Assembly (NCBI GenBank): GCA_963836075.1
Contig: CAWIIB010000001.1
Span: forward strand, 992,001-1,056,000
From: an uncultured Acidobacteriota bacterium
GTDB taxonomy: Bacteria; Acidobacteriota; JAQAZP01
Length of the DNA: 64,000 bases
Direction: 5' to 3'
Positions 25,809 to 49,213 of the stretch are shown one piece after another. A program made the position numbers and the translations under genes. Under the pieces are notes generated by a model. The model was not told the DNA's origin. It did no database searches and was given only the letters and a program-made list of their open reading frames with translations. The number at the start of each line of letters is the position of its first letter. The stretch's first letter is position 1.

Positions 25809-28193
25809 ATGCCGCATCAAAAATCAGCCTCAGCAAACCTCGGCCCCCGGCACTGCAGCCTCCCGGTTCTTCTGCTGGCCGTGGCACTCCTGCTCCCGCT
25901 CTGCTGCCCGCCGGCGGTTGCCGATGCCACACACGGCAAGACGGCGCGCCGCCGCAACACCGACTGCCAGATGCTGCTCACCGAAAAACGGCTGCTGGGC
26001 TGGGACGTGTCAAAGCCGCGGGCGAAGATACAGCAGGCGAGAACCATCGGCCTCGCCGGAGATCTGTCCCGGGCACTGGGCCTGCTGGAAGAAGCGGAGC
26101 GGGAGCTCCGTTTCATCGACAGCTGGCAGGGCAACCCGAAAGTGATCAGGATCAGGGGGGAAGAACGGCGGCCCAGCGGCAGGGCTGAAGATGGAGCGGA
26201 CACCGGGCTCACCACCGGGCCCCTGGGTCTCGGTTTTGACACCGCCGGCCGCCTGACCCGGGTGACACTTGGCGGTGAGGATCGCCAGTCCCCGGTGAGC
26301 GGCGGTTTCTACATCATGGACGCGGCCACCGGAAAGGTCGCACCGTTCAGCGGCCGGGTCACCCAGACCGGCGGGGGGGTGGATCTGAGCGGAACGATCC
26401 CCGCGGTAAGCGCCAACCTGGAGGCCGGTATCAAGAAGAAGGAAGGGTGGCTGGAAGTGGAAGGGACGCTGAAGGACACCAGCGGCGCCGACCGGGCCAT
26501 GGTCCTCTGCTTCAAGATCCCCCTGCGCCGCGAGGGGCTCCTCTGGTGGGACGATCCTGAACAGGGGATGACCATTCAAAACAAGCCCGTCATTCGGCAG
26601 AATTCAGCCCAGGTGACCCTTGACGACAAGTCCACCCGTCTGGTGTCCATCTATCCCCTGGCCTGCGCCGGCGACCAGCGGGCCGGACTGGCGCTGGCAA
26701 CCGCCATCGACCACCCCACGGCCTTCCGGATCAACTACGATGGCCAGGACCAGAGCATCAACCTCTACTACGACTTCGGGCTGACCTCAAAAACGGCGAA
26801 GTTTCCCGGCGAGGCGCGTTTCCGCTTTGTGATCTACCCGCTGGCGGAGCCGGCCTGGGGGTTTCGCTCTGCCCTCCACACCTACTACCGGATCTTTCCC
26901 GATGCTTTTGCCGACACGGTGAAAGACCCCGGGCTCTGGGGGACCGTGGAAGCCGCCGCCTTGCTGGGCGAGGAATACAAGAAAATGGGCTTCGGCTTCC
27001 TCCAGGGGGAGAACGGGCCCCCGAAGTGGGGCAAGAAACTCGGCCTCTACTCCCTCCGCTATGGCCGGCCCTGGTCGTTCCTGATTCCCGGCGCCACCGG
27101 GACGGCGGAGGGTCAACTGGCCGCACTGACCGCCGATCCGGCGAGACTGAACCCCAATCCCTCACACCGCCTGATCTTCGGGCAGGTGAGCGCTCGGGAA
27201 ATGGTGACCGGCGCCGAACTGTCGGCAATCCACGACCGCGCTGGAAAGCCGGTGAGCGTCACCGACCGCTCCCTGGGCGGGGCAAAGATCATCCTCAACC
27301 CCGATCCGGAGATCGAGGGCGGGCGGGGAGGCAAGAATGCCGCCTGGCTGACTCTGGCCAAGGCCATCTCGCCGGCGGTGGATACCTACAAATCCGCGGG
27401 CCAGCACCGCTGGGGAGTGTTCCTCGACGTGGCCGGCGCCTCGTTGAAACACGAAAACTTCCGCCAGGACCACATGGCCTGGGCCGACTACCCGCTGACC
27501 TTTGACGAGCGTGAGAAACGTCCGGTGATCCTCGGTCTCTCCTCGGCCTGCGAGTATCTGGTCCACCTCCGGGACTGGGCCGGCCGCCGGGGCGGGATGG
27601 TGGCGGTCAACACCTCACCCCACCCCTACAACATGATCTTCCTCGCCCCGTTCTGCGACATGGCCGGGACCGAGCACCTGCCCGGGAGGCGCGAAATGTA
27701 CAACCGGCGGGCCCTGGCCGGCGGGAAGCCGATCGGCTTCCGCACGAAGGAAAGCTGGGATGCGCTGCTGAAAACCGGCCTCTTTTTCGGTTGCTATCCC
27801 TCGCGGAATCCGCCGGGCGCGGTGCGGTCCAGGCTGGATCATCTGGATGGGGTCCGTCCGCAGTTGACCCGCCTGGTGCCGCTGATCAAGGACCTGGACA
27901 ACGCCGGCTGGCAGCCGGTGACCCGGGCCCGCACCGGCCACCGGGACCTGCCGGTGGAGCGCTTCGGAGACTTCGGTGATGGACCGGTCTACCTGACGGT
28001 CTGGAACCGGACCCCGTCGGCCACGGAGGTGGCGCTGAACCTGGATGAGACGGCCAGCCGGTGGTGCGGAGACACTCCGCGGGCATCCGAACTGGCCGGG
28101 GGGCTGAAGGTAGCCACCGCTGCAGGCGTCATCCGGCTCCAGCTGGGCGCGGACCAGGTGGCCGTGATCAAACTGGAGGCCGGAGGTGAATAG
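25809..28193 (+). CDS. Secreted glycoside-hydrolase-like protein of unknown specificity
   Basis: Signal peptide (AVA-D); beta-sandwich region, then barrel-like motifs GVFLD and DMAGTE; C-terminal VERFGD..VYLTVWN. Confidence 0.55.
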   Translation: MPHQKSASANLGPRHCSLPVLLLAVALLLPLCCPPAVADATHGKTARRRNTDCQMLLTEKRLLGWDVSKPRAKIQQARTIGLAGDLSRALGLLEEAERELRFIDSWQGNPKVIRIRGEERRPSGRAEDGADTGLTTGPLGLGFDTAGRLTRVTLGGEDRQSPVSGGFYIMDAATGKVAPFSGRVTQTGGGVDLSGTIPAVSANLEAGIKKKEGWLEVEGTLKDTSGADRAMVLCFKIPLRREGLLWWDDPEQGMTIQNKPVIRQNSAQVTLDDKSTRLVSIYPLACAGDQRAGLALATAIDHPTAFRINYDGQDQSINLYYDFGLTSKTAKFPGEARFRFVIYPLAEPAWGFRSALHTYYRIFPDAFADTVKDPGLWGTVEAAALLGEEYKKMGFGFLQGENGPPKWGKKLGLYSLRYGRPWSFLIPGATGTAEGQLAALTADPARLNPNPSHRLIFGQVSAREMVTGAELSAIHDRAGKPVSVTDRSLGGAKIILNPDPEIEGGRGGKNAAWLTLAKAISPAVDTYKSAGQHRWGVFLDVAGASLKHENFRQDHMAWADYPLTFDEREKRPVILGLSSACEYLVHLRDWAGRRGGMVAVNTSPHPYNMIFLAPFCDMAGTEHLPGRREMYNRRALAGGKPIGFRTKESWDALLKTGLFFGCYPSRNPPGAVRSRLDHLDGVRPQLTRLVPLIKDLDNAGWQPVTRARTGHRDLPVERFGDFGDGPVYLTVWNRTPSATEVALNLDETASRWCGDTPRASELAGGLKVATAAGVIRLQLGADQVAVIKLEAGGE

Positions 28194-34687: not shown

Positions 34688-34725
34688 AAACGGCCGCGGT
34701 GCTCCGGCGCCGCGGCCGTTTTTTT
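34688..34725 (+). terminator. Intrinsic terminator of PFOR
   Basis: AAACGGCCGCGGTGC..GCGCCGCGGCCGTTT stem plus T7. Confidence 0.85.
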
Positions 34726-34741
34726 ATGCAGAAAACCGACC

Positions 34742-35236
34742 TCAGGAAGGGGAGAGCCAAAGGCCGAGGTGGATCAGGGGGACAAGCAGGAGCCGGGACA
34801 GGCGGTGGGAGAGCATACCCAGGCGGCCCAGCCGTCCCGCCAGCGGATTGACCCAGGTCCAGGGACGGCGATGCAGCAGGAGCGTGTGCTCCGGGCCCAG
34901 GATGGCGGTCACCCGGCCGAGCATCATCTCCGAAGGGACCCATGACCAGGCCCGGGAGTTGTCCCCTTTCTGGCAGCAGGGGCGGCTGCCGTCGGCGGCC
35001 GCCCGGGACATCAGCAAGCGGTGAACCACCACCGTCTCGCCCTGGCGCAGGGCAATGATGTCGCCGCAGCGGAGCCGCTCCGGGGAGATCGGCTGAATGG
35101 TGACCCGGTCGCCGGGGGAGGCCACCGGCACCATGCTGCGCCCCTCCAGACGGAGAGTGAACTCCTGCCGGCTGTGCCGCCAGAGGTCCAGCACGGCGGC
35201 GGTCACCGGCAGCCCGGGTGCTCCCTTTTCCCCCAC
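34742..35236 (-). CDS. S24/S26 signal-peptidase-like protein without N-terminal membrane anchor
   Basis: GRSMVP (Ser nucleophile), GD boxes, VVHRL, KGDN, as in S26B/SipW-type enzymes. Confidence 0.82.
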   Translation of the reverse strand: MGEKGAPGLPVTAAVLDLWRHSRQEFTLRLEGRSMVPVASPGDRVTIQPISPERLRCGDIIALRQGETVVVHRLLMSRAAADGSRPCCQKGDNSRAWSWVPSEMMLGRVTAILGPEHTLLLHRRPWTWVNPLAGRLGRLGMLSHRLSRLLLVPLIHLGLWLSPS

Positions 35237-35240
35237 CTGC

Positions 35241-37985
35241 TCACTCCCACGATTTGAGCCGCGAGGCCGGGTCTCCCAGAAGGGTGAACATGCTGACCAT
35301 CACATCGGTGGCGCCCAGAGCATGCGCGGCCACCTTGGCCTCGGTGACAATGACACCGAGACGGTCCTCCCCTTCATCAAAGATCAACGAGAAGATTTCC
35401 GGGGCCAGGAGATCCTGTTCCCAGGTGTAGCTCAGCCCACTGGGCGAGAAGCATCCGAACCCGCCGCCCAGTTCCGCAGTCGCCAGCTCCTCGGCCAGAC
35501 AATAGTAGAACGGATGCGAGAAATAGCCGTTGAGACAGGTCATGGTGAGCACGAAGGTCAGGGCGTCCTCGTTACTCAGCGACGCCACGTCGGCCGAGCG
35601 GAACATATACTCGCCGGCCCAGCCGGTCACCGACCCGTGGCCGTTGTAGTGGACGATGATCTCACCGATGTTGAAGCCCCGGACAATGTCTTCCGTGGCA
35701 TCGTCCACCACGCCGTACTGGGAGAGATACACCCGGCCAGGCACCATCCCATTGGGCAGCATGGCCAGCAGCGTCTCGTTCAGCGACTCGAAGACCGGCT
35801 CGTCGTCAGCGATAAAGAGGGCACGGGCGGGCACCGCTGCCGTCGATTGCTCGTGGGCCAGCAGCCGGGCCACCATGCGCCCGGCCATATCCAGATCGCT
35901 GGCCGGCAGCCGCCCGATACACATCTCCGGCAGGACATCGTCGCCTTCCACACAGACATACCAGTTGTCGTCCGGCGTCAGCCCCAGTTCGCTCAGTGAA
36001 AGGTGCACCGGCACCCGGCTCTGTTTTCCGGTGCCGAAATAGTCGAGGTAATCGGTGTTGGCATCCCCCAGCAGCAGAACGAACTCCGGGGCCGGGGCCG
36101 GCCACTCCCGGTAGGCATGGCCCAGGAAAGCCTGCAGCGCCGCCGGGTCGGCGATCCCGTGGTTGAAGTCGTCGTAGATATCCTCCAGGGCCACCGACAC
36201 GGCGCGGAGCCCCTGGCCCTGGCGATAGCTGACCAGCGGGTCGGCGGCCGCCAGGAACTCCCGCGGCGTGATCAGGATATAGTCAGCACCGTCACCGCCG
36301 GCCCAGAGCCCCGGCGATGTCCAGCCCTCCACCGATGCCGGGGACCGGAAACGGCCCGACGTCAGAGCCTGGTACCGTGCGGGGCCACCGGCGGTCTCTC
36401 TCCATGCCGCCGTGAACCCGCCTCCGGCCTCGCTGATGCCGACGCCCACCACGCGCTTCACGCTCAGATGGGAACTGATATCAAAGACGGCCACCTCCGG
36501 TTCCGAGAAACCGTGGACAGCAATGACCTGGGGGCCGGCCCCGGCAGTGGTGATCCAGAGCTGGTCGTCCATGGCGCGAAGACGTCTGCGGTAGTCCAGC
36601 TCGATCCAGTTGACGTATATGCTGTCCACCGCCGCCCCGGTGTCACCCGGGCAGTTCACGGTGATGGTATTCAACCCCTGGGCCAACAGATCGGAGGTGA
36701 TGGTCATCTCCTGGACAAAAACGTGGTCACCGTCCCAGAACTGGTCCCCCGCCTCGACCCCGTTGACCCGCACCCGGGTGTGATGGTTGGGATGCGGTGC
36801 CGCTGTGGAACGTCCCCGGCAACACACCCGGAGGGTTCCGTCCCACACTCCGGGAGCGAGGTTGGGAATTTCCAGCTGGTAGTCCATGGACGAGGGCGCG
36901 GTGAGCATGTCCCAGAACCAGTAGTCCTCCTCCGGCGCCCCCGGTGCCGCCTCCCACATCCGGTGGTTTTCCTCCACGTGCACGGTTTCAGTGGTGGAGG
37001 TGACCAGTCTGCCGCCGCCGGCGAGCGAACCATTCACCACATCCATCCGCTTACCCGGAGGGCCGTTCCAGTAGAGCCAGTAAACGTTGGTCCCGGTGAA
37101 GCTGCTCTCCATAGCCTGGCCGTAGAAAATGAGGCTCCCCTCGGGCCATGGCACGTCCTTTTCCGGGCCGGCCACCAGAACCGGCACTTCCCTTCCCCGG
37201 TTGAACAGTTTCAACGTGGCCCGGTCAATTGCATCCACCTCGCCGTGGCTCAAACCCGTGGAGAGCAGCGCTGCCACATAGTCAATGGCATGGAGGCCGT
37301 CTTCCTCCACCTCAATGCGCAACGCCCCGTCGCTTCGTGGGCCGGGGAGACCGACCAGTCCACCGGGGGAAGAAATGGCTGAACCCGTGCCTGGCGGAGC
37401 CTCCGGCGACGCCACAGCTCCGACCGCCGGCTGGACAAAGCTGAGCCGGACCAGCAGGCGGGTGGCACAGCGCAGGTTTCCAGCCGATGGATCCCACTGG
37501 AAGGGCTGGAATAGAACCCGGGCCATCCGGGCGCCACGCCGCACAGCCGGTGGGTCCACCGCCACCAGGGCGGCGGGATAGATCCCCGTGCCCCCGATAC
37601 ACCGTTCCGTGCCGCCGCCTTCCGGAGACAGGGTCAGGACGGGGAAGAGCCGCTGCAGCTGGTGGTGCTCGTAGTCCACATCGAGGATCTCGGCACTCAA
37701 TGCGCTTCCCTCGGGGAGCGGAATGGTGCAGCCAAGACGGGGCAATTCGGGCAGGCCGATATCCGAGGTCCTGGCCCAACCGTCCACCACCACCCGCCGG
37801 CATGGTCCGTCCGGCCCCGCGGTCGGCACCAGCCGGTAGGTCGGCAGGTTGAGTTCCAGGGTCATGCCCCGGGAGTCCCGGTCCCGCAGGTCAAGTTCAC
37901 CGGGAAGCGACAGGGCCGGGCCGGGTGTCAGAGCGCCGGCCGGCACCGTGAGCAGAAGCAACAGCAGAGTTAGTCCGTATCTCAT
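35241..37985 (-). CDS. Secreted C25 (gingipain-like) cysteine peptidase with propeptide
   Basis: Signal peptide (AGA-L); G.PELP propeptide; ADYILITP, FVLLLGDA, DNWY, IGRLPA, YNGHGS (His), TMTCLNG (Cys), LLGDPA. Confidence 0.88.
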   Translation of the reverse strand: MRYGLTLLLLLLTVPAGALTPGPALSLPGELDLRDRDSRGMTLELNLPTYRLVPTAGPDGPCRRVVVDGWARTSDIGLPELPRLGCTIPLPEGSALSAEILDVDYEHHQLQRLFPVLTLSPEGGGTERCIGGTGIYPAALVAVDPPAVRRGARMARVLFQPFQWDPSAGNLRCATRLLVRLSFVQPAVGAVASPEAPPGTGSAISSPGGLVGLPGPRSDGALRIEVEEDGLHAIDYVAALLSTGLSHGEVDAIDRATLKLFNRGREVPVLVAGPEKDVPWPEGSLIFYGQAMESSFTGTNVYWLYWNGPPGKRMDVVNGSLAGGGRLVTSTTETVHVEENHRMWEAAPGAPEEDYWFWDMLTAPSSMDYQLEIPNLAPGVWDGTLRVCCRGRSTAAPHPNHHTRVRVNGVEAGDQFWDGDHVFVQEMTITSDLLAQGLNTITVNCPGDTGAAVDSIYVNWIELDYRRRLRAMDDQLWITTAGAGPQVIAVHGFSEPEVAVFDISSHLSVKRVVGVGISEAGGGFTAAWRETAGGPARYQALTSGRFRSPASVEGWTSPGLWAGGDGADYILITPREFLAAADPLVSYRQGQGLRAVSVALEDIYDDFNHGIADPAALQAFLGHAYREWPAPAPEFVLLLGDANTDYLDYFGTGKQSRVPVHLSLSELGLTPDDNWYVCVEGDDVLPEMCIGRLPASDLDMAGRMVARLLAHEQSTAAVPARALFIADDEPVFESLNETLLAMLPNGMVPGRVYLSQYGVVDDATEDIVRGFNIGEIIVHYNGHGSVTGWAGEYMFRSADVASLSNEDALTFVLTMTCLNGYFSHPFYYCLAEELATAELGGGFGCFSPSGLSYTWEQDLLAPEIFSLIFDEGEDRLGVIVTEAKVAAHALGATDVMVSMFTLLGDPASRLKSWE

Positions 37986-39137
37986 GTGGTCTGTTCTTCC
38001 TCTTCGGGCCGGGTGGCGTCGAGCGCCAGTTGCCTGACCAACGGTTCCTGCTCCTCAAAACGGCCCACCGTCAGCCGGAAGCAGGAGATATCGCCAATAT
38101 GCTCGATGAGCTCCTTCATCCGCATAACGGACCCGGTATCCCTGCCCCGCCCGGATGAATCGACCCGTTGTTTTATTCCGGGCAGCAGGCCGAATGCCGC
38201 CTGGTGGACTGGTATGCTCTCCAGCGCCGGTGAACGTGAGAAATCGGGCCGGGCCGTCTCACCCCTGAACACGTTGAGCAGATGGTCCCGGTGTTCCTCC
38301 AGCAGGTCCGCAAGACGGACTGCCAGCCCTTGCCCCAGCGGGTAGTCCAGCCGGAATTCGGCCACATCGGTGAGCGGTCTGGTCACTTCGATTCCGGGGT
38401 GCAGTCGGACCAGGGCATCGAGCAGCGGCTCCCAGCCCGGCTCCCGGGCCCCGATCACCAGCCGGCCCATGGCCCTGGCTTGCGGCCCCGGATCGAGGAT
38501 GAGCAGCAGGGCCGGCGCTGCCGTTGCACCGCCTGTCGTTTCACCAGCAATGGCCGGCAGAGGGATCTTTCCACCCCTCAGCGCCACGCCATCGCTTACC
38601 GACTCCGCCGGCCCTTCTTCAGGAACCACCCAGAGACTGCGCGGAAAGGGGTGAACCCGGCCGGTCCGGCGGTGGACCGGACATATTTCATCGGAATAGA
38701 GGGTGAACCCCGCTTCGGCCAGGGCCAGGGCCATGGTGGTCTTTCCCGTGCCCGGCGGCCCGGCCAGGATCACCGCCCGGCCATGGCGCACCGCCACTGC
38801 CGCGTGGAGCAGCAGGTGATGGTTCAGGCTGTCAAAAAGTGTCTGGGTGACCCACTGCCAGGCATGGTGGACCGGGGTGGGATGTCCGTCGAGGGACTGT
38901 TCCCCGTGACGGTCAGCGCCGCCCGCGGTGCGCGGCGGCCCGGGAGAAGCTGACCCCCGGCCCCTCCGGCCCGTTGAAGCAAGCGCTGATCCGCAGGTCG
39001 GCGTCAACCCCGGACACAGTGGTGCGGAACGACCCGTAATCCCGGTCAAACAGTTCCAGCAGCTGTTCCGAATCGCTGGACAGGTCCAGGTCCGTTCCGA
39101 GAATGCAGTAGCGTGCCTGGTGCCGGTCCCGGATCAC
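37982..39137 (-). CDS. HprK-related P-loop kinase; frameshift near 38900-38960
   Basis: LLHAAVAVRHGRAVILAGPPGTGKTT...YSDE..V..PFPR. The plausible N-terminus starts at GTG 39137, overlapping the rSAM stop (GTGA), in a different frame that ends at 38913. Confidence 0.75.
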
Positions 39138-40534
39138 GACGCCCCCTTTTCCGCAGCGGCGCCGCGAGCGCTCTCCCGATGCAAAATACCGTCGAACGCT
39201 TCCCGGTAGGCCTCCTGGCGGTAAGGACAGAAGTCGTCCCGCTCCCAGATGCTCCCCCGATGGTCCAGAGCCTGGCCCATACAGCCGGCCTGGCACAGGT
39301 TCCGCCAGTGACAGGCGGCGCACTCGGCGATCTCCCGCCGCCGCCGGCTCAGAGCCGAGCAGGCCCCGGCCATGGCGGGGTGCTCCAGGCTGGCGCGGAG
39401 GCCGTCACGCAAAACGTTTCCCAGACGAAATTCATCGCGCATCAACAGGACGCAGGGATAGGCCGAGCCGTCCACGTCGGCCACCAGGGTCCGGCCCACG
39501 GAACACCAGATGCCATCCGGGGCGATGGCCGGGGGGACTTCCAGCAGGAATCCGCTCAGACCGCAGTTGACGCTCACCGCGCAGCCGCCGCCGCGCTGCG
39601 CCGCGGCCACCTGATGGTAGAACGCCTCTTGATCCTCCACCGTCACCCCGGCGCCGATGCTGGCCCAGTTGCCTGCCGCCCGGCCCCGGCGCCCCAGGGG
39701 CAGGAAGCGGACCTGGGGCACCCCCCGATCCTCGGCCAGCCTGATGATCGCCGACAGCTGGTGCACATTCTGCTTCATGATGGTGGTGGAGAGATTGAGC
39801 TGCTCCCCCAGGCCGGCCCGCTGCAGGAGTTCCACGGCGTGCAAAGCGGCGGCGAAACTCCCCGCAGCCCTGATCCGGTCATGGGTCGCCTCGTCGGCCC
39901 CGTCCAGGCTGACCTGGACCAGCGCACCGCTCTCGGCCAGGAAGGCAGCCCACCGGTCATCGATGAGCGAACCGTTGGTCAGCAGTCGGACGCGCATGCT
40001 CCCCGCGGCATGACTGATCAAATCCTTCACCCGGGGGTGCAGCAGGGGCTCGCCGCCGCTAATGGTCACGCTCCGCGCTCCCCCGGCGGCCGCCTCGTCG
40101 ATCAGCCGGCAAGCCGCCTCGAGGGGCATGTCCAGGGTTTCCCGGTCAGCGGCGTGGTAGCAGTGGACACAGGCATAGTTGCAGCGGTGGGTGATGTGCA
40201 GAAAAAGCGATTCCGCCAGCGGGACACGCCGCGGCGGGTCGAGGGCTGGGGAATCGAGAAAGCCGCGGTGGCGGAGCTCGTCGGCCACCCGGTCCACATC
40301 GCGCCGGGCCTCGTCTCCGCCGAGGCCGTAACGCCCGGCCAGCGCGGCGGCCGCGCCCTCGCGGTCCGCTCCGGCGCCGAGAATCCCGGCAATTTCGCGG
40401 GTGGTGGCGTTTACCACCAGCCAGCGGGGATCACAGCGGTGGAGCATGACCAACCGATCCCGGGAGCCTTCGGGCAAAGGGGTGTCGGGGTAAAAAAACC
40501 AGGAAGGTTCCGGTGCTGGGGAATGTCTGTCCAA
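39134..40534 (-). CDS. RRE(PqqD)-fused radical SAM/SPASM maturase
   Basis: N-terminal PqqD-like VVNATTREI...LAGRYGL..DEARRDV..L..RGFL; CNYACVHC; SGGEPLL; SPASM CSVG...GSAYPC...CAACHWRNLCQAGC...C. Confidence 0.92.
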   Translation of the reverse strand: MDRHSPAPEPSWFFYPDTPLPEGSRDRLVMLHRCDPRWLVVNATTREIAGILGAGADREGAAAALAGRYGLGGDEARRDVDRVADELRHRGFLDSPALDPPRRVPLAESLFLHITHRCNYACVHCYHAADRETLDMPLEAACRLIDEAAAGGARSVTISGGEPLLHPRVKDLISHAAGSMRVRLLTNGSLIDDRWAAFLAESGALVQVSLDGADEATHDRIRAAGSFAAALHAVELLQRAGLGEQLNLSTTIMKQNVHQLSAIIRLAEDRGVPQVRFLPLGRRGRAAGNWASIGAGVTVEDQEAFYHQVAAAQRGGGCAVSVNCGLSGFLLEVPPAIAPDGIWCSVGRTLVADVDGSAYPCVLLMRDEFRLGNVLRDGLRASLEHPAMAGACSALSRRRREIAECAACHWRNLCQAGCMGQALDHRGSIWERDDFCPYRQEAYREAFDGILHRESARGAAAEKGAS

Positions 40535-40584: not shown

Positions 40585-40755
40585 CTAGAAGATGGCGCAG
40601 GGTGCGGGGCTGCAGGCATGCGCGGGCCCGGCCTGCTCCAGGATTTCCACGCTGCTGTAACTGGTGATTACCGGTGATTCGTAGCGGATCCGAATTCCGG
40701 AATTTTTCCGGTCGCAGCGGTCCGGCTTCCGCGGTTCAGTTCTCTCCTCAATCAT
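40585..40755 (-). CDS. Putative RiPP precursor peptide (56 aa)
   Basis: MIEERTEPRKPDRCDRKNSGIRIRYESPVITSYSSVEILEQAGPAHACSPAPCAIF; GGGAG RBS; YxxPxI motif; first gene after the promoter and directly upstream of the RRE-rSAM. Confidence 0.8.
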   Translation of the reverse strand: MIEERTEPRKPDRCDRKNSGIRIRYESPVITSYSSVEILEQAGPAHACSPAPCAIF

Positions 40756-40839
40756 CTCCCTCTCCCGGTTACGGCCCCAGGCAGGTGTTGAACCCCTCTC
40801 CACAACATATCTTTTCGGCAGTAATGCGTTTTGACTGAA

Positions 40840-40868
40840 AATTTAACAACAACCCTCCGGGCTGTCAA
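40840..40868 (-). promoter_or_regulatory. sigma70 promoter of the RiPP cassette
   Basis: TTGACA-N17-TAAATT with TGn extension, just downstream of the mdh terminator. Confidence 0.75.
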
Positions 40869-40885: not shown

Positions 40886-40914
40886 AAAAAAACCCCCGCC
40901 AGGCGGCGGGGGTT
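40886..40914 (-). terminator. Intrinsic terminator of mdh
   Basis: AACCCCCGCC..GGCGGGGGTT stem with U7 on the minus strand. Confidence 0.85.
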
Positions 40915-42169: not shown

Positions 42170-42589
42170 TCAGTTCCCCAGGTCGACGATGATCCGGTCC
42201 TGGTCCAGCCAGGCGGGCCAGGTCTGCAGCGGCAGGGTGGCCGGACCGTTCAGCACTTTTCCGTCGAGGTCGAAGAAAGACCCGTGGCAGGGGCACTCGA
42301 ACCGCGTGACCGCCCTGCGGTAGGCCACGGTGCACTTCTCGTGGCTGCAGATGGGGCTGACCGCGCTGACCCCATCTTCCGCATGGCGGGCCAGCAGCAC
42401 CTCCCGGCCCTTGAGCCGGATGGTGATCGACCCGCCCACCCGCTTGAGCCGCTTGACCCGGTCCAGCGGGATGGCCACCTTGCCCGCCCGGGCCGCGCGG
42501 CCCGGCCAGACAAAGAGCATCGCCGCCAGCAACGGCAGCAGCCGCTTGAAGAACCCCCGTCGGGAAAATGGAGACCGGCTGTGGTTCAT
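42170..42589 (-). CDS. Tat-exported Rieske [2Fe-2S] protein
   Basis: SRRGFFK Tat motif; CSHEKC and CPCHGSFF boxes; GPATLPL. Confidence 0.9.
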   Translation of the reverse strand: MNHSRSPFSRRGFFKRLLPLLAAMLFVWPGRAARAGKVAIPLDRVKRLKRVGGSITIRLKGREVLLARHAEDGVSAVSPICSHEKCTVAYRRAVTRFECPCHGSFFDLDGKVLNGPATLPLQTWPAWLDQDRIIVDLGN

Positions 42590-42611
42590 CTGCTCAGGCC
42601 GCCGCCTCCGT

Positions 42612-43553
42612 TCATTCGCCCTGTCGCCGGAACCGGAACTCCCGGGTGATGGTGAACCCGAGGATCAGGTCACCGTAATCACGGAAGGTGTTGGTGGCGA
42701 TGCCGGTGGCTCCGAAATACTGGGTATTGGAAATCACCAGGGAAAAGGTGTGCTTGTTGGTGGTGGCCCGGAGAGAGGTGGAGAGCACAGGGTAGCGCTC
42801 ACTGAATCCGCCGACGTTGGCCACAACTTCCGTGTGCCAGGAGAAGCCGGGGGTGAAGCGGATGTCCAGTGTTCCGGGAACGGCCATGGAATAATCCGGG
42901 TCGCCGCGATCCCGGCCCTCATTCCAGGAATCGGAGTGGTAGAGCAGGCCGGTGCCCACCCTGACCCGCCGGCCAAAGGTGCGGTTGATCGCCAGCTGGC
43001 CGAAGAACCCCTGCTTGTCATCGGCCTCCCTTTTGGAGAACCAGGTCATCCCACCGCGAATCGAAACATCGAGAAAGTGCTTCTCCTGTTTCAGCGGCTG
43101 GTATTTGAGATCGAGGTCATAGGTATCGGTCTTGAACTGGTCCTGCGTGCCGTTGATCCGCTGCAGGCCCACGTCCAGGCCATCGAGGATGCCGTAGCGG
43201 GCGGCAAGGCCGATTTTCAGCAGCCCGCTGTCAAAACCGAAGAAGTCGTGAAAGGTATCCCTGGTGAAGGTCTTCCAGGCCCGGTGGTCCAGGACGAAGA
43301 TCAGCGAGCCCCGCCGCGCGGTTCGGGCCAGCAGCACGTTGATCGTCCTCTCGTCCCGCGCCTTGCCTTCATCGTCCCAGGTGGAGAGGCCGTCCACCTC
43401 CTCGATGAAATCGATTTCCTCGATCTCGTCCACGGCCTCTTCGGCAGCACCCTGTTCGTCAGTTCCCACAGCGGCGAACCCGGCACCGCCAGACAGCAGC
43501 ACCGTGAGCCCCAGCAACAGCATAAACAAGCAGTCTGTCCGGAGTTTTCTCAT
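42612..43553 (-). CDS. Outer-membrane beta-barrel (DUF5777-like)
   Basis: Signal peptide; R.IN....T...G.L.F..DHR, DFFGFDSG, HTFSLVISN, LGFTITREF. Confidence 0.7.
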   Translation of the reverse strand: MRKLRTDCLFMLLLGLTVLLSGGAGFAAVGTDEQGAAEEAVDEIEEIDFIEEVDGLSTWDDEGKARDERTINVLLARTARRGSLIFVLDHRAWKTFTRDTFHDFFGFDSGLLKIGLAARYGILDGLDVGLQRINGTQDQFKTDTYDLDLKYQPLKQEKHFLDVSIRGGMTWFSKREADDKQGFFGQLAINRTFGRRVRVGTGLLYHSDSWNEGRDRGDPDYSMAVPGTLDIRFTPGFSWHTEVVANVGGFSERYPVLSTSLRATTNKHTFSLVISNTQYFGATGIATNTFRDYGDLILGFTITREFRFRRQGE

Positions 43554-45980: not shown

Positions 45981-47510
45981 CTACCAGGAAGCTCCCAGTT
46001 CGCCAACCTCGGCCTGCACGGCGTCCAGCACCCGGCATTCCCGCACGGCATCGGACATGTTGTTGTGGTCCGGGAAGAGCGGCCGGTCCTCGCCCAGGTG
46101 ATCCACAACCTCGCGCACGGCGGCGTGGGCCGCACGGGTGCCCCGGCCCGGCCGGTAGTCCCTGAAATCCAGGGCCTGGGCGCCGGCGATCAGCTCGATG
46201 CCGAGAACGCCGTGGGCGTTTTCCAGGATCTGCTTCGTCTTCAGCGCGGTGTTCATCCCCATGCTGACGAAGTCCTCCTGGTCGGCGGCGGCGGGGATCG
46301 ACTGGACGCAGGCCGGCATGGAGAGGGTCCGCTGCTCGACGATCAGCATGCCGGCGGTGTACTGGCTGAGCATGTGGCCGGAAAACATCCCCGCCCCCTC
46401 GGTGAGGAAAGCCGGCAGTCCAGCGCTGAGCGCCGGGTTGAGCAGCCGGTTGAGGCGGCGCTCGGAGAGCACGCTGACCATGGCCACCGAGGCGCCCACC
46501 ATGTCCAGGGGCAGGCTGATCGGCGTGCCCTGGAAGTTGGCGCCGGTGAGCACCGTATCCGTCTCGGGCACGAATATGGGGTTGTCCCCCACGCCGTTCA
46601 GTTCGATCTCGAACTGCTTGCGGGCGTAAGCCAGGTGGTCTCGGGCAGCCCCGATCACCTGGGGTGTGGAGCGCATGCTGTAGGCATCCTGGACCTTGGT
46701 CTTCACCCCCCCCAGCAGGTCGCTCTCCTCGATACAACGGCGGATGTTCGACGCCGAGGTTACCGCTCCCCGGAACCCGCGCAGCTCGTGCAGTTGGGAG
46801 AGATAAGGCTTCATATTGGCCCGCAGCGCCTCGAGGCTCATCGCGGCGGCGATCTCGGCCTGGCGGAGCCAGCGCTCCACATCGTAGATCTCGAGACAGC
46901 CCATACCGGAGATGAGATTGCTGCCGTTGATCACCGCCAGCCCGTCCCGGGCCTCGAGCACCACCGGTTTGATCCCCGCCCGCTCCAATGCAGCCTCGCC
47001 GCTGAGCCGCTGCCCCTCGAAAAACGCCTCACCCTTGCCCATCAGCACCAGGGCCACCTGGCTCATCGGGGCCAGGTCGCCGCAGGCCCCCACACTTCCT
47101 TTTTCGCAGACCATGGGGGTGACCCCGCGGTTGAGCATGTCGCAGATGGTCCGGGTGATCACCGGCCGGCAACCGGAATGGCCGTGGGCATGAACATTGG
47201 CCCGGGCAAACATCGCCGCCCGGACATGCTCCAGCGGCGCCGGCTCACCGATGCCGGCGGAATGGTTGTAGATCAGGTAGCGCTGGAAATCTTTCAACTG
47301 GTCATCGGAGAGCGCCACCTCGGAGAACTCACCGATTCCGGTGTTGACCCCGTACATGACCTCGCCGGCCTCGATCTTTCGCTCGAGCATCGCCCGGCAG
47401 ACCTTGATTCGCTCAACCGCCGCTCCGTCCAGTTCAACTTTTTCGTTGTGGCGGGCCACTGCCACCACGTCTTCGATGGTCAGGCCGCCGCCGGCAATCG
47501 TAATGGCCAT
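45981..47510 (-). CDS. hutH: MIO-dependent aromatic amino acid lyase (histidine ammonia-lyase-like), Ala-Cys-Gly variant
   Basis: YGVNTGIG, GSVGACGDLAP, INGS, VQDAYSMR, DNP, NFQG, QEDFVSMG. Confidence 0.85.
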   Translation of the reverse strand: MAITIAGGGLTIEDVVAVARHNEKVELDGAAVERIKVCRAMLERKIEAGEVMYGVNTGIGEFSEVALSDDQLKDFQRYLIYNHSAGIGEPAPLEHVRAAMFARANVHAHGHSGCRPVITRTICDMLNRGVTPMVCEKGSVGACGDLAPMSQVALVLMGKGEAFFEGQRLSGEAALERAGIKPVVLEARDGLAVINGSNLISGMGCLEIYDVERWLRQAEIAAAMSLEALRANMKPYLSQLHELRGFRGAVTSASNIRRCIEESDLLGGVKTKVQDAYSMRSTPQVIGAARDHLAYARKQFEIELNGVGDNPIFVPETDTVLTGANFQGTPISLPLDMVGASVAMVSVLSERRLNRLLNPALSAGLPAFLTEGAGMFSGHMLSQYTAGMLIVEQRTLSMPACVQSIPAAADQEDFVSMGMNTALKTKQILENAHGVLGIELIAGAQALDFRDYRPGRGTRAAHAAVREVVDHLGEDRPLFPDHNNMSDAVRECRVLDAVQAEVGELGASW

Positions 47511-47722
47511 AACGTTCAGTTCTCCTAAAAGTGGTCGCCCTCTTCAGTGCACGCGGCTGTCAGCGTCTGTCCGGTGGCATCCCCAGCCGCAAAACAGCCC
47601 AATAATAGCGCCGGAAGCCGCGTTCGTCGAGGGGGAAATCCTATCCGGCGGCACTCTGCATGATATACTCGCCGGGATCAACCGGGCCTTTGCCCGCACA
47701 CCAAGCACGGAGGAAATCATCC

Positions 47723-49213
47723 ATGATCCGACTGGCAAAAATCGTCTTCACCGGCTGCCTGTTATTGATGATGATGGTTCCCGCCGCGGCAAAGGACGCC
47801 GCCGGCGAGTTCGACCGCTGGTTCGTCGACCGCACCCTGCGGGTGGACTACTACCACATCGGCAATGCGGAGGAGGAGGCCGTAACCCTCGACCGGTTGT
47901 ATGAACAGGGGACGTGGGCCGGCAGCACTGAGAACCTCCTCGACACCCGCAACAACGGGGCCTTTTACGTCAAGGTGTTCGACGCGGCCACCAACCAGTT
48001 GATCTTCAGCCGCGGATTCGACACCATTTTCCGCGAATACCAGACAACAGCCCCGGCCGCCGCCGGGGTCAGCCGCACCTTTCACGAGAGCTTCCTGATG
48101 CCCCGGCCAAAGAGGCCGTTCCAGTGGACGATGGAACGGCGTGACCGGACCAACCACCTCACACCGGTGTTCAGCACGGTGATCGACCCCAACGAGGTGA
48201 CGGTGGTCCGGGACGCACTGATTCCGGGCGTGTCCACGGCGCTGCACCACGAGGGCGGGCACCCGCACCGCTGCGTGGACTTTCTGCTGGTGGCCGACGG
48301 TTACACCGCGGAGGAGGAGGAGAAGTTTGCCGCAGACTGCCGGCGGATGACCGAAATGCTCTTCCGCTACGAACCCTACAGCTCCGAAAAAACAGCGATC
48401 AACGTGCGCAGCGTTTTCCGGGCCAGCGCGGAAAGCGACGTCAGCAAGCCCCACTTCGGCGAGTACCGCAGCGGTTCGGTGGGCACCAGTTTCTACTCCC
48501 TCGGATCGCCCCGCTACCTGCTCACCGAGGACAACCGGGCCCTGCGCGATGTGGCGGCCCACGCTCCCTATGACGCCCTGTGCATCCTGGTCAACACCGC
48601 CACCTACGGCGGCGGCGGGATATACAACCTCTACGCCACCAACGCCGTGGACAACCAGTGGGCCGAATACCTCTTCATCCACGAAATGGGCCACAGCTTT
48701 GCCGGACTGGCCGACGAATACTACACCTCGTCCACCGCGTACGACGAGGAGGCCTTCTATCCGCCCGGCATCGAACCGCTGGAGCCGAACATCACCCGCC
48801 TGATCGGTGACCCGGTGCCGAAGTGGAACGACGCGGCCGACGCCGGCCAGTACCCCACGCCCTGGGGCAAGGAGGCCTACGACGCCGCCGACCGGGCCTA
48901 CCAGGTGGAACGGGGAAAAATGAACCGCAAAATCGCCGACGCCAAACGTGCGGGCGCGGAAGCCGAACTGATCGCCGGATTGGAGGAGGAGTCGGCGCGC
49001 CTGAGCCGGGAGGCCGCGGCACGGGCCGACGCCATCCTGCGCCAGGACCCGAACTTCGGCAAGGTCGGCGCCTTCGAGGGCGCCGGCTACTGCAGCAGCG
49101 GTGTCTACCGGCCCGAACTGGACTGCATCATGTTTACCAAGGGGAGCAAGCCCTTCTGCCGGGTCTGCCGCGCGGCCATCGAGCGCACCATCCGCCACCA
49201 CACCGGAAGGTAG
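47723..49213 (+). CDS. Secreted M64-family metallopeptidase
   Basis: Signal peptide; TLRVDYYH N-domain; YGGGGIYN; HEMGHSFAGLADEYY; FEGAGY..GVYRP..DCIM...FC.VC. Confidence 0.92.
   Translation: MIRLAKIVFTGCLLLMMMVPAAAKDAAGEFDRWFVDRTLRVDYYHIGNAEEEAVTLDRLYEQGTWAGSTENLLDTRNNGAFYVKVFDAATNQLIFSRGFDTIFREYQTTAPAAAGVSRTFHESFLMPRPKRPFQWTMERRDRTNHLTPVFSTVIDPNEVTVVRDALIPGVSTALHHEGGHPHRCVDFLLVADGYTAEEEEKFAADCRRMTEMLFRYEPYSSEKTAINVRSVFRASAESDVSKPHFGEYRSGSVGTSFYSLGSPRYLLTEDNRALRDVAAHAPYDALCILVNTATYGGGGIYNLYATNAVDNQWAEYLFIHEMGHSFAGLADEYYTSSTAYDEEAFYPPGIEPLEPNITRLIGDPVPKWNDAADAGQYPTPWGKEAYDAADRAYQVERGKMNRKIADAKRAGAEAELIAGLEEESARLSREAAARADAILRQDPNFGKVGAFEGAGYCSSGVYRPELDCIMFTKGSKPFCRVCRAAIERTIRHHTGR

Follow-up and report, generated by a model that had tools for sequence, protein, structure and literature searches.

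The window analysed here, a stretch of 64,000 nucleotides from an uncultured Acidobacteriota bacterium, carries on its minus strand an operon of five genes in the order precursor peptide, radical-SAM/SPASM maturase with a recognition element (RRE) for ribosomally synthesised peptides that are modified after translation (RiPPs), HprK-like kinase, C25 peptidase and S26 peptidase, all of them separated by short gaps or overlapping. The first gene, an open reading frame (ORF) of 56 codons plus stop at 40585..40755, had been singled out as a precursor in a sequence-only reading of the window, and its sequence and coordinates proved exact. The minus-strand translation of this interval is MIEERTEPRKPDRCDRKNSGIRIRYESPVITSYSSVEILEQAGPAHACSPAPCAIF followed by a stop, with the ATG at 40755..40753, the stop codon at 40587..40585 and the purine-rich GGAGAGGGAG at 40765..40756, immediately 5' of the ATG. 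A longer frame started by GTG from 40803 is also present; the homologues start at the same Met as the 56-codon ORF. The leader comprises residues 1-47 (40615-40755) and the proposed core residues 48-56 (40588-40614).

The operon is flanked by plausible transcription signals. Some 85 nt before the precursor begins, a consensus scan, the only basis for this feature, detected a promoter-like site with 10/12 matches (TTGACA-17 nt-TAAATT, with TG before the second hexamer; 40840..40868, minus strand). It lies just after a bidirectional terminator-like hairpin (40891-40914), which ends the upstream malate dehydrogenase gene (mdh). At the other end of the operon, a terminator-like hairpin of 15 pairs (34688..34721, both strands) is shared with a convergent pyruvate:ferredoxin oxidoreductase gene.

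A profile built from 12 precursor homologues was searched against 1.84 billion proteins and yielded 449 cluster representatives at E<=1e-3, with 67 at <=1e-10; nearly all of the best 150 of the 449 measured 36-98 aa. Another assembly holds a 56-aa protein 91% identical to the window precursor, and a scan of the phylum gave 12 places in 9/401 genomes matching the peptide at E<=1e-3 (a looser tally at E<=1, 206/401 genomes, is noise). Differences among the homologues were concentrated at third codon positions: between the copy in a related Acidobacteriota metagenome-assembled genome (MAG; L001) and a paralogue in the window's own genome (L037), 14 synonymous and 2 non-synonymous codon changes were counted over 24 codons, with nucleotide differences of 2/2/16 at the three codon positions. 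No Pfam or NCBIfam model matched the peptide, and a PDB sequence search with its profile gave nothing meaningful. By the evidence of homologues, profile search and codon-position bias, the 56-codon ORF appears to be a translated gene under selection, the profile matches and the third-position bias excluding a chance ORF, and it is very probably the genuine precursor gene of the five-gene cassette.

The paralogue (L037 7759-7923; G000:C9:1759758-1759922), one of the 12 places matched in the phylum, is not linked to the operon copy; its nine-residue core is the same but its N-terminus differs. It is flanked by a 789-aa ORF with no Pfam match and by an S8 peptidase/FG-GAP protein, and an M14 carboxypeptidase is encoded close by. 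The window's own genome yielded no further cassette.

Motif conservation was assessed in the 149 best representatives, the window's own excluded, of which 145 fitted the pattern Y-x-x-P-x-(I/V/L)-x(8)-hydrophobic-x(4)-G; these 145 motif carriers served for the core statistics. In the window the motif, of the RRE-binding type Y-x-x-P-x-I/V described in PMC13381572, reads Y25-E-S-P-V-I30 (40666..40683, minus strand), as supported by the alignment and, weakly, by a complex model described below. Y25 was invariant and P28 nearly invariant in a 44-sequence alignment, confirming the lasso-like YxxPxI leader motif that had been proposed from the letters alone, and the N-terminus is, as suggested there, charged and variable, its first 24 residues having no invariant column in the alignment apart from Met1.

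Family counts also delimited the proposed S26 cut site and the start of the core, G43-P-A-H-A47 followed by C48-S49-P50 (40606..40629, minus strand; cut after A47). Before the cut, G was present in 145/145, P in 141/145 and Ala at -3 in 140/145, position -2 was mostly Gln (86) or Leu (26), and position -1 was Ala (104) or Thr (36), together 140/145. The suggested AxA site therefore holds as a conserved cut-type motif, although its wider form is G-P-A-x-(A/T), with Thr at -1 in 36 sequences. In the core, whose median length was 11 residues, Cys at +1 (Cys48 in the window) was the best conserved residue (126/145), followed by Ser (88) or Thr (23) at +2, that is, 111/145 for the two hydroxyl residues, and Pro at +3 (n = 57). 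A second Cys was found in 91 of the 126 Cys-started cores and in 64 of them was offset by 5 or 6, so that, of the two-Cys core proposed earlier, Cys48 stood as a family feature whereas the second Cys is only frequent. The C-terminal residues varied across the family, the window precursor ending in Ala-Ile-Phe.

The gene following the precursor encodes the radical-SAM/SPASM maturase (P0002, 466 aa; 39134..40534, minus strand; the TTG start is uncertain) with its PqqD-like RRE at the N-terminus. Pfam recognised Radical_SAM (9e-25) and, above its cut-off, SPASM; PqqD scored 22.1 bits vs a cut-off of 23.4, and exceeded the cut-off in 6/6 scanned orthologues. The CxxxCxxC motif (C118/C122/C125) and seven SPASM cysteines were invariant in 25 orthologues. 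In the AlphaFold2 model (pLDDT 91.3), residues 12-89 form a domain of three strands and three helices with the shape of an RRE, and Foldseek placed CteB (5wgg) on top (1.2e-19), followed by SkfB, the anaerobic sulfatase-maturating enzyme and SuiB. A PDB sequence search with the RRE domain alone gave nothing meaningful.

The HprK-like kinase gene (37982..39140, minus strand), which is split by a frameshift near 38929-38931, has as best NCBIfam match TIGR04352 (1.5e-17, 63.6 bits vs a cut-off of 200), and its His, P-loop and Asp were invariant in five orthologues.

The kinase stop is overlapped by the start of the gene for a secreted, gingipain/PorU-like C25 cysteine peptidase of 914 aa (35241..37985, minus strand). 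Pfam detected PF01364 (8e-72) together with the C25 propeptide, the hydrophobic N-terminus being read from the sequence, and the PorU model NF033707, which NCBIfam names a sortase-like transpeptidase, matched at 1.3e-59 (202 bits vs a cut-off of 420). Its GHG and C-x-NG blocks aligned to those of gingipain R, where they hold the catalytic His and Cys.

The last gene encodes an S26 peptidase of the SipW/Sec11 (ER/archaeal) type, 164 aa (34742..35236, minus strand), which is proposed as the leader peptidase. It matched Pfam PF00717, and its best NCBIfam match was TIGR02228 (6.9e-9, below cut-off), followed by the nickel superoxide dismutase maturation protease TIGR02754 (3e-5, also below cut-off). 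S34, H72 and D92 were invariant in 17 orthologues. The AlphaFold2 model (pLDDT 89.9) adopts the fold of clan SF, its top Foldseek matches being the LexA C-domain, human SEC11A/C, SipA and SpsB, and shows one N-terminal and two C-terminal helices and no N-terminal membrane anchor. In a Deltaproteobacteria MAG (L055 7007-7762, minus strand), the S26 frame reads into the precursor without a stop, as a fusion of 251 aa, while in a close relative (L118) a stop codon separates them; the fusion is either true or an assembly error.

The distribution of the family was explored with a degenerate DNA pattern of the leader scanned over a collection of species-representative genomes. Of the 102 stretches recovered, 85 contained a true precursor, with 89 precursor ORFs in total, and 17 were chance matches by the absence of a precursor-profile match, including all four cultured isolates; one of these 17, the L055 fusion, is a real precursor inside the S26 ORF. 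The 85 true loci came from 54 assemblies (counted by hand), all titled MAG, so no cultured carrier was found among them, and the labels included Thermodesulfobacteriota/Deltaproteobacteria, Acidobacteriota (with Holophagaceae and Aminicenantes), Chloroflexota, Planctomycetota and Myxococcota. Conservation of the leader motif, a check proposed in the sequence-only reading, emerged both from the 145/149 representatives and from these 85 loci.

Using Pfam and purpose-built hidden Markov models, the five genes were found together in six loci (L001, L038, L040, L042, L043 and L044), and the same gene set was present up to the contig end in L041. In the MAG with the closest maturase relative in the genome collection (L001, 74% identity), mdh is followed by the same five genes, and the precursor retains the leader and the core. 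Because the stored stretches are fixed 8-kb blocks, context was counted only for precursors with at least 6 kb downstream (n = 19). A family maturase was near 11 of these 19, and those 11 were accompanied by the kinase in 10, the C25 peptidase in nine and the S26 peptidase in seven. Gene order varied by lineage, from S26-precursor-maturase-kinase-C25 (L108) to precursor-C25-kinase-S26 (L054), and in one locus (L070) the cassette genes were spread over both strands. This shuffling indicates that the linkage is not plain inherited synteny and argues for functional coupling. Neighbours beyond the five genes were inconstant (ABC-2 permeases twice, a PF14907 nucleotidyltransferase, or NTP transferase, once, and beta-helix proteins twice). 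The PF14907 protein, which is uncharacterised, lies directly beside a related cassette (L132 34-1311, minus strand); an NTP transferase is also part of the LPP clusters considered below.

Orphan, near-identical precursor copies were also observed, one assembly having eight loci and three further assemblies 6-7 precursors. Such scattered sets of six to eight occur in some Thermodesulfobacteriota-type MAGs (e.g. L047, L073, L077 and L093, and further L104, L109, L112 and L130), many of them lacking any cassette gene within the 8-kb block stored, and two core types recur among them, one of ten residues with two Cys and one of seven residues with a single Cys. Two multi-domain proteins, P0095 (383 aa) and P0120 (671 aa), end in a complete leader/core module. 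Both begin with a hydrophobic, signal-like stretch; a lamin-tail domain is present in one and beta-propeller repeats in the other, and their C-termini run from a hydrophobic helix through a basic patch into the module, like a cytoplasmic tail. In a third protein of 182 aa (P0132) the module is likewise C-terminal, and no Pfam domain was detected.

Among characterised systems, the nearest is the pathway of the linear polyphosphorylated peptides (LPP) of Bacillota (lppA-K-B-S-D-N), whose leader consensus is YxxPxVLxHQxIxFETxxS (Popov et al., Nat Commun 2026, PMC13381572). There, the HprK-like LppK puts several phosphates on core Ser3, and the SipW-like LppS (S29/H68/D93) is the proven leader peptidase, cutting after Thr-1; LppS needs the RRE LppB, and is poor on unphosphorylated peptide (PMC13381572). 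The LPP clusters also encode a discrete RRE, an MsbA-like pump and an uncharacterised NTP transferase (PMC13381572). The window cassette resembles LPP in its Y-x-x-P-x-V/I leader, in its HprK-like kinase with a Ser at the second or third core position, in its SipW-like S26 peptidase, whose S34/H72/D92 occupy nearly the same positions as the LppS triad, and in the small residue at -1 (Thr in LPP, Ala or Thr in the window family). The two differ in that the RRE of the window is fused to the maturase, the packed operon leaving no room for a discrete PqqD gene, and in that a radical-SAM enzyme and a secreted C25 peptidase are present while the MsbA-like pump and the NTP transferase are not. The leaders share only Y-x-x-P-x-I/V, the cut site lying 23 vs 16 residues past the Tyr, which makes the window leader seven residues longer over this part; the cores of the window family are short and Cys-first (median 11 aa), and its hosts belong to several other phyla and not to Bacillota. 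A term search found 'radical', 'SPASM', 'C25' and 'gingipain' absent from the main text of the LPP paper (PMC13381572). On these comparisons, the window cassette may be described as an LPP-like RiPP system with added radical-SAM and C25 parts.

The other systems sharing features with the cassette are more distant. With the sactipeptide/ranthipeptide maturases CteB (5wgg) and SkfB (6efn), the window enzyme shares a full-length RRE-rSAM-SPASM architecture (451 aligned columns to CteB), the seven-Cys SPASM motif and a place beside a short precursor with a Cys-bearing core; unlike them, it shows only 20% identity and scores far below the cut-offs of their families (StsB 111.4 vs 625, PapB 79.9 vs 340 and CbpB 91.5 vs 375 bits). 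To our knowledge, no sactipeptide or ranthipeptide pathway has been reported with an HprK-like kinase, S26 or C25 partner, and none was found in our literature searches. The lasso tailoring kinases of the paeninodin type (HprK-related kinase A, TIGR04352) are the best match of the window kinase and are likewise leader-dependent in their recognition, but the score is far below the cut-off, no cyclase or B2 peptidase accompanies the gene, and paeninodin-type kinases act on a C-terminal Ser whereas the window family's C-terminal residues vary. Lasso peptides themselves share the Y/W-x-x-P-x-L/V/I leader motif and a PqqD-type RRE.

The SynChlorMet cassette (HprK-like ScmC with the PqqE-like radical-SAM/SPASM proteins ScmE and ScmF; TIGR04249-04251) offers a similar enzyme combination and is likewise uncharacterised. 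Its models matched weakly (ScmC 2.7e-6, ScmE 3.9e-30, all far below cut-off), the window cassette has one radical-SAM enzyme and not two, and we know of no C25 or S26 peptidase named as part of SynChlorMet. In NCBIfam, although below cut-off, and among PDB sequences, the window C25 peptidase matched best to PorU, the C25 sortase of type IX secretion; the carrier genomes are not Bacteroidota. No described counterpart of a link between C25 and a RiPP-type cassette was found in the searchable literature.

Several assignments were considered and rejected. Membership in SynChlorMet or GeoRSP was discarded because the scores were far below cut-off. The same applied to mycofactocin, with MftC at 138 bits vs a cut-off of 265, and with a precursor ending in Ala-Ile-Phe where a mycofactocin precursor requires a C-terminal Val-Tyr. 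The leader is charged or polar throughout and has no hydrophobic region upstream of the A-x-A, and a Sec-type signal peptide for cutting by the housekeeping signal peptidase I was rejected on this ground; a lipoprotein lipobox was dismissed for the same lack of a hydrophobic region and for the Gln at -2.

We propose that the five genes form a RiPP operon with the 56-codon ORF as its precursor (A) gene, and consider the course outlined below, taken as a whole, to be probably correct, judging from the sequences and from analogy with LPP. The leader strand around Y25-x-x-P28-x-I30 would dock on the N-terminal PqqD-like RRE of the maturase, which would modify the conserved Cys48 and often also the second Cys (here Cys53). 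The likeliest product of this enzyme would be an intramolecular thioether, the linkage formed by the enzymes nearest to it in structure; this part, suggested by fold likeness alone, is possible but somewhat doubtful. The HprK-like kinase would then act on Ser49, the hydroxyl residue beside Cys48, as the counterpart of LppK on core Ser3. That a core Ser is the kinase target had been anticipated in the sequence-only reading and accords with Ser/Thr at +2 in 111/145 representatives; phosphorylation of Ser49 itself appears about as apt to occur as not. The S26 peptidase of the operon, with Ser34/His72/Asp92, would cut after Ala47 in G-P-A-H-A to release the nine-residue core, a step for which family conservation and the LppS precedent make a reasonably good case. 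The secreted PorU-like C25 peptidase would finally act on or with the product outside the cytoplasm. Since kinase, peptidase and leader logic are common to LPP and the window cassette, the cut site and the kinase target suggested earlier are the most economical reading of the locus.

Several observations weigh against this pathway. A single Cys was found in 35 of the 126 Cys-started cores, and 19 of the 145 representatives have no Cys at +1; a two-Cys cross-link or disulfide therefore cannot define the family. One core (L101) contains Tyr and no Ser/Thr, yet a kinase and an S26 gene adjoin it, so that the Ser at +2 may not be a universal kinase target. Pfam scans of the operon revealed no exporter, discrete RRE or NTP transferase, unlike LPP, and eight of the 19 long-flank precursors had no cassette nearby. 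All NCBIfam matches of the maturase were far below the curated cut-offs, the best being MftC (138 bits vs 265), and its chemistry is thus not assignable by homology.

The kinase reading frame is also broken, with about 70 N-terminal residues in one frame and the remainder (P0003) in another. Contigs from public sequencing runs of three studies (X1, X3 and X9) carry indels exactly at this break, one with two extra bases at 38929/38931 and two with one base fewer at 38931, and either indel restores a single kinase frame; no single such contig spans the whole stretch. Either an assembly error or strain variation probably accounts for the frameshift.

As for the docking step, modelling the peptide against the N-terminal domain of the maturase, a check suggested in the sequence-only reading, gave a pass that counts as weak support. 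The complex of RRE residues 1-110 with the precursor reached an ipSAE of 0.34 in each of three runs, vs 0.00 for the best of three controls, with a contact agreement of at least 86% and a partner pLDDT of at least 49. The mark applied was reached by 58/80 solved complexes and 2/110 mismatched pairs, and at scores of 0.60 or less by seven of those 80 complexes and by both of the passing mismatches; complexes of RRE-leader type have already been solved, and the pass may reflect memory of them.

The best surviving alternative is that the product is an essentially linear, LPP-like phosphopeptide, on which the radical-SAM enzyme performs a formylglycine-like oxidation, an epimerisation or a C-C link instead of forming a thioether. 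The anaerobic sulfatase-maturating enzyme, which acts on a Cys with a Pro two residues later, is among the best sequence and fold matches of the maturase, and the window core starts with Cys-Ser-Pro. The abundance of single-Cys cores (35/126) points the same way, as does MftC, the best NCBIfam match and not a thioether former. However, Pro at +3 is found in only 57/145 representatives, and the top folds, CteB and SkfB, both synthesise thioethers and share the RRE-rSAM-SPASM architecture of the maturase, so we regard a linear product as unlikely.

A more distant possibility takes the leader/core module as a cytoplasmic tag of a PorU-like C25 sorting or processing system and not as a diffusible product, the free peptides being stand-alone tails. 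It draws on P0095 and P0120, which carry the module as a C-terminal tail, on the C25 gene in 9/11 long-flank loci with a family maturase and on the NCBIfam naming of PorU as a sortase-like transpeptidase. Such fusions are only two of the 150 listed representatives, however; most members are free peptides of 36-85 aa, often in many copies per genome, and the peptide and the active site of the secreted C25 peptidase would lie on opposite sides of the membrane, all of which makes a tag very improbable. Still less credit can be given to a metal-binding peptide, in which the N-terminal Cys amine exposed by the S26 peptidase and a second thiol would chelate a metal. The S26-processed N-terminus of nickel superoxide dismutase forms a Ni-hook in this manner, the maturation protease of that enzyme (TIGR02754) is the second-best NCBIfam match of the window S26 peptidase, and the pattern seen most often among the cores is a pair of Cys offset by 5 or 6 (64/126); but no function would then be left for the maturase, the kinase and the C25 peptidase, and single-Cys cores are common.

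A lasso precursor, like a chance ORF, can be practically dismissed: the leader is of the lasso type (Y-x-x-P-x-I) and HprK-like kinases are known as lasso tailoring enzymes (PMC13381572), but the window core has no Asp/Glu, just 17/145 representatives have D/E at core positions 7-9, and Pfam and NCBIfam scans of all operon genes found no lasso cyclase or B2 peptidase, in line with the earlier judgement that this is not a lasso peptide.

Outside the operon, the window contains an ORF of 794 aa on the plus strand (25809-28193) with a coding-type GC content at third codon positions of 0.83 and no Pfam match at E<=1e-3. On the minus strand, a DUF5777 membrane beta-barrel protein (42170-43553) is encoded beside a small Rieske protein; near this gene are a TonB-C protein, a histidine/aromatic ammonia-lyase (45981-47510) and an M64 IgA-peptidase-like protein (47660-49213).

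Literature searches, including searches with sequence strings, returned no description of this leader or of the set of radical-SAM enzyme, HprK-like kinase, S26 and C25 peptidases, and the LPP paper was the only related one. If the RiPP operon reading holds, the short ORF opens a large, untouched RiPP family of 449 sequence clusters, carried by at least 54 MAGs of several phyla, in which three maturation chemistries that had not been reported together (radical-SAM modification, HprK-type phosphorylation and leader removal of the signal-peptidase type) would be combined, and which is consistently tied to a secreted protease of the gingipain/PorU type. It also specifies a nine-residue core, predicts where the leader is cut and points to C48, S49, C53, Y25 and P28 as candidate key residues. 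A bolder version, which we hold to be improbable as a whole, is that of a new RiPP class of short Cys-first peptides, cross-linked by the radical-SAM enzyme, phosphorylated, released by a cytoplasmic Sec11/SipW-type peptidase and attached to the cell surface or trimmed there by a secreted PorU-like C25 transpeptidase; if true, this would be a peptide-decoration system uniting RiPP and sortase-like chemistry across uncultured anaerobic phyla of sediment and soil. If the proposed leader removal is true, the principle of a type I signal peptidase (SpI) acting as leader peptidase, first shown in 2026 for the LPPs of Bacillota, would extend to many other phyla.

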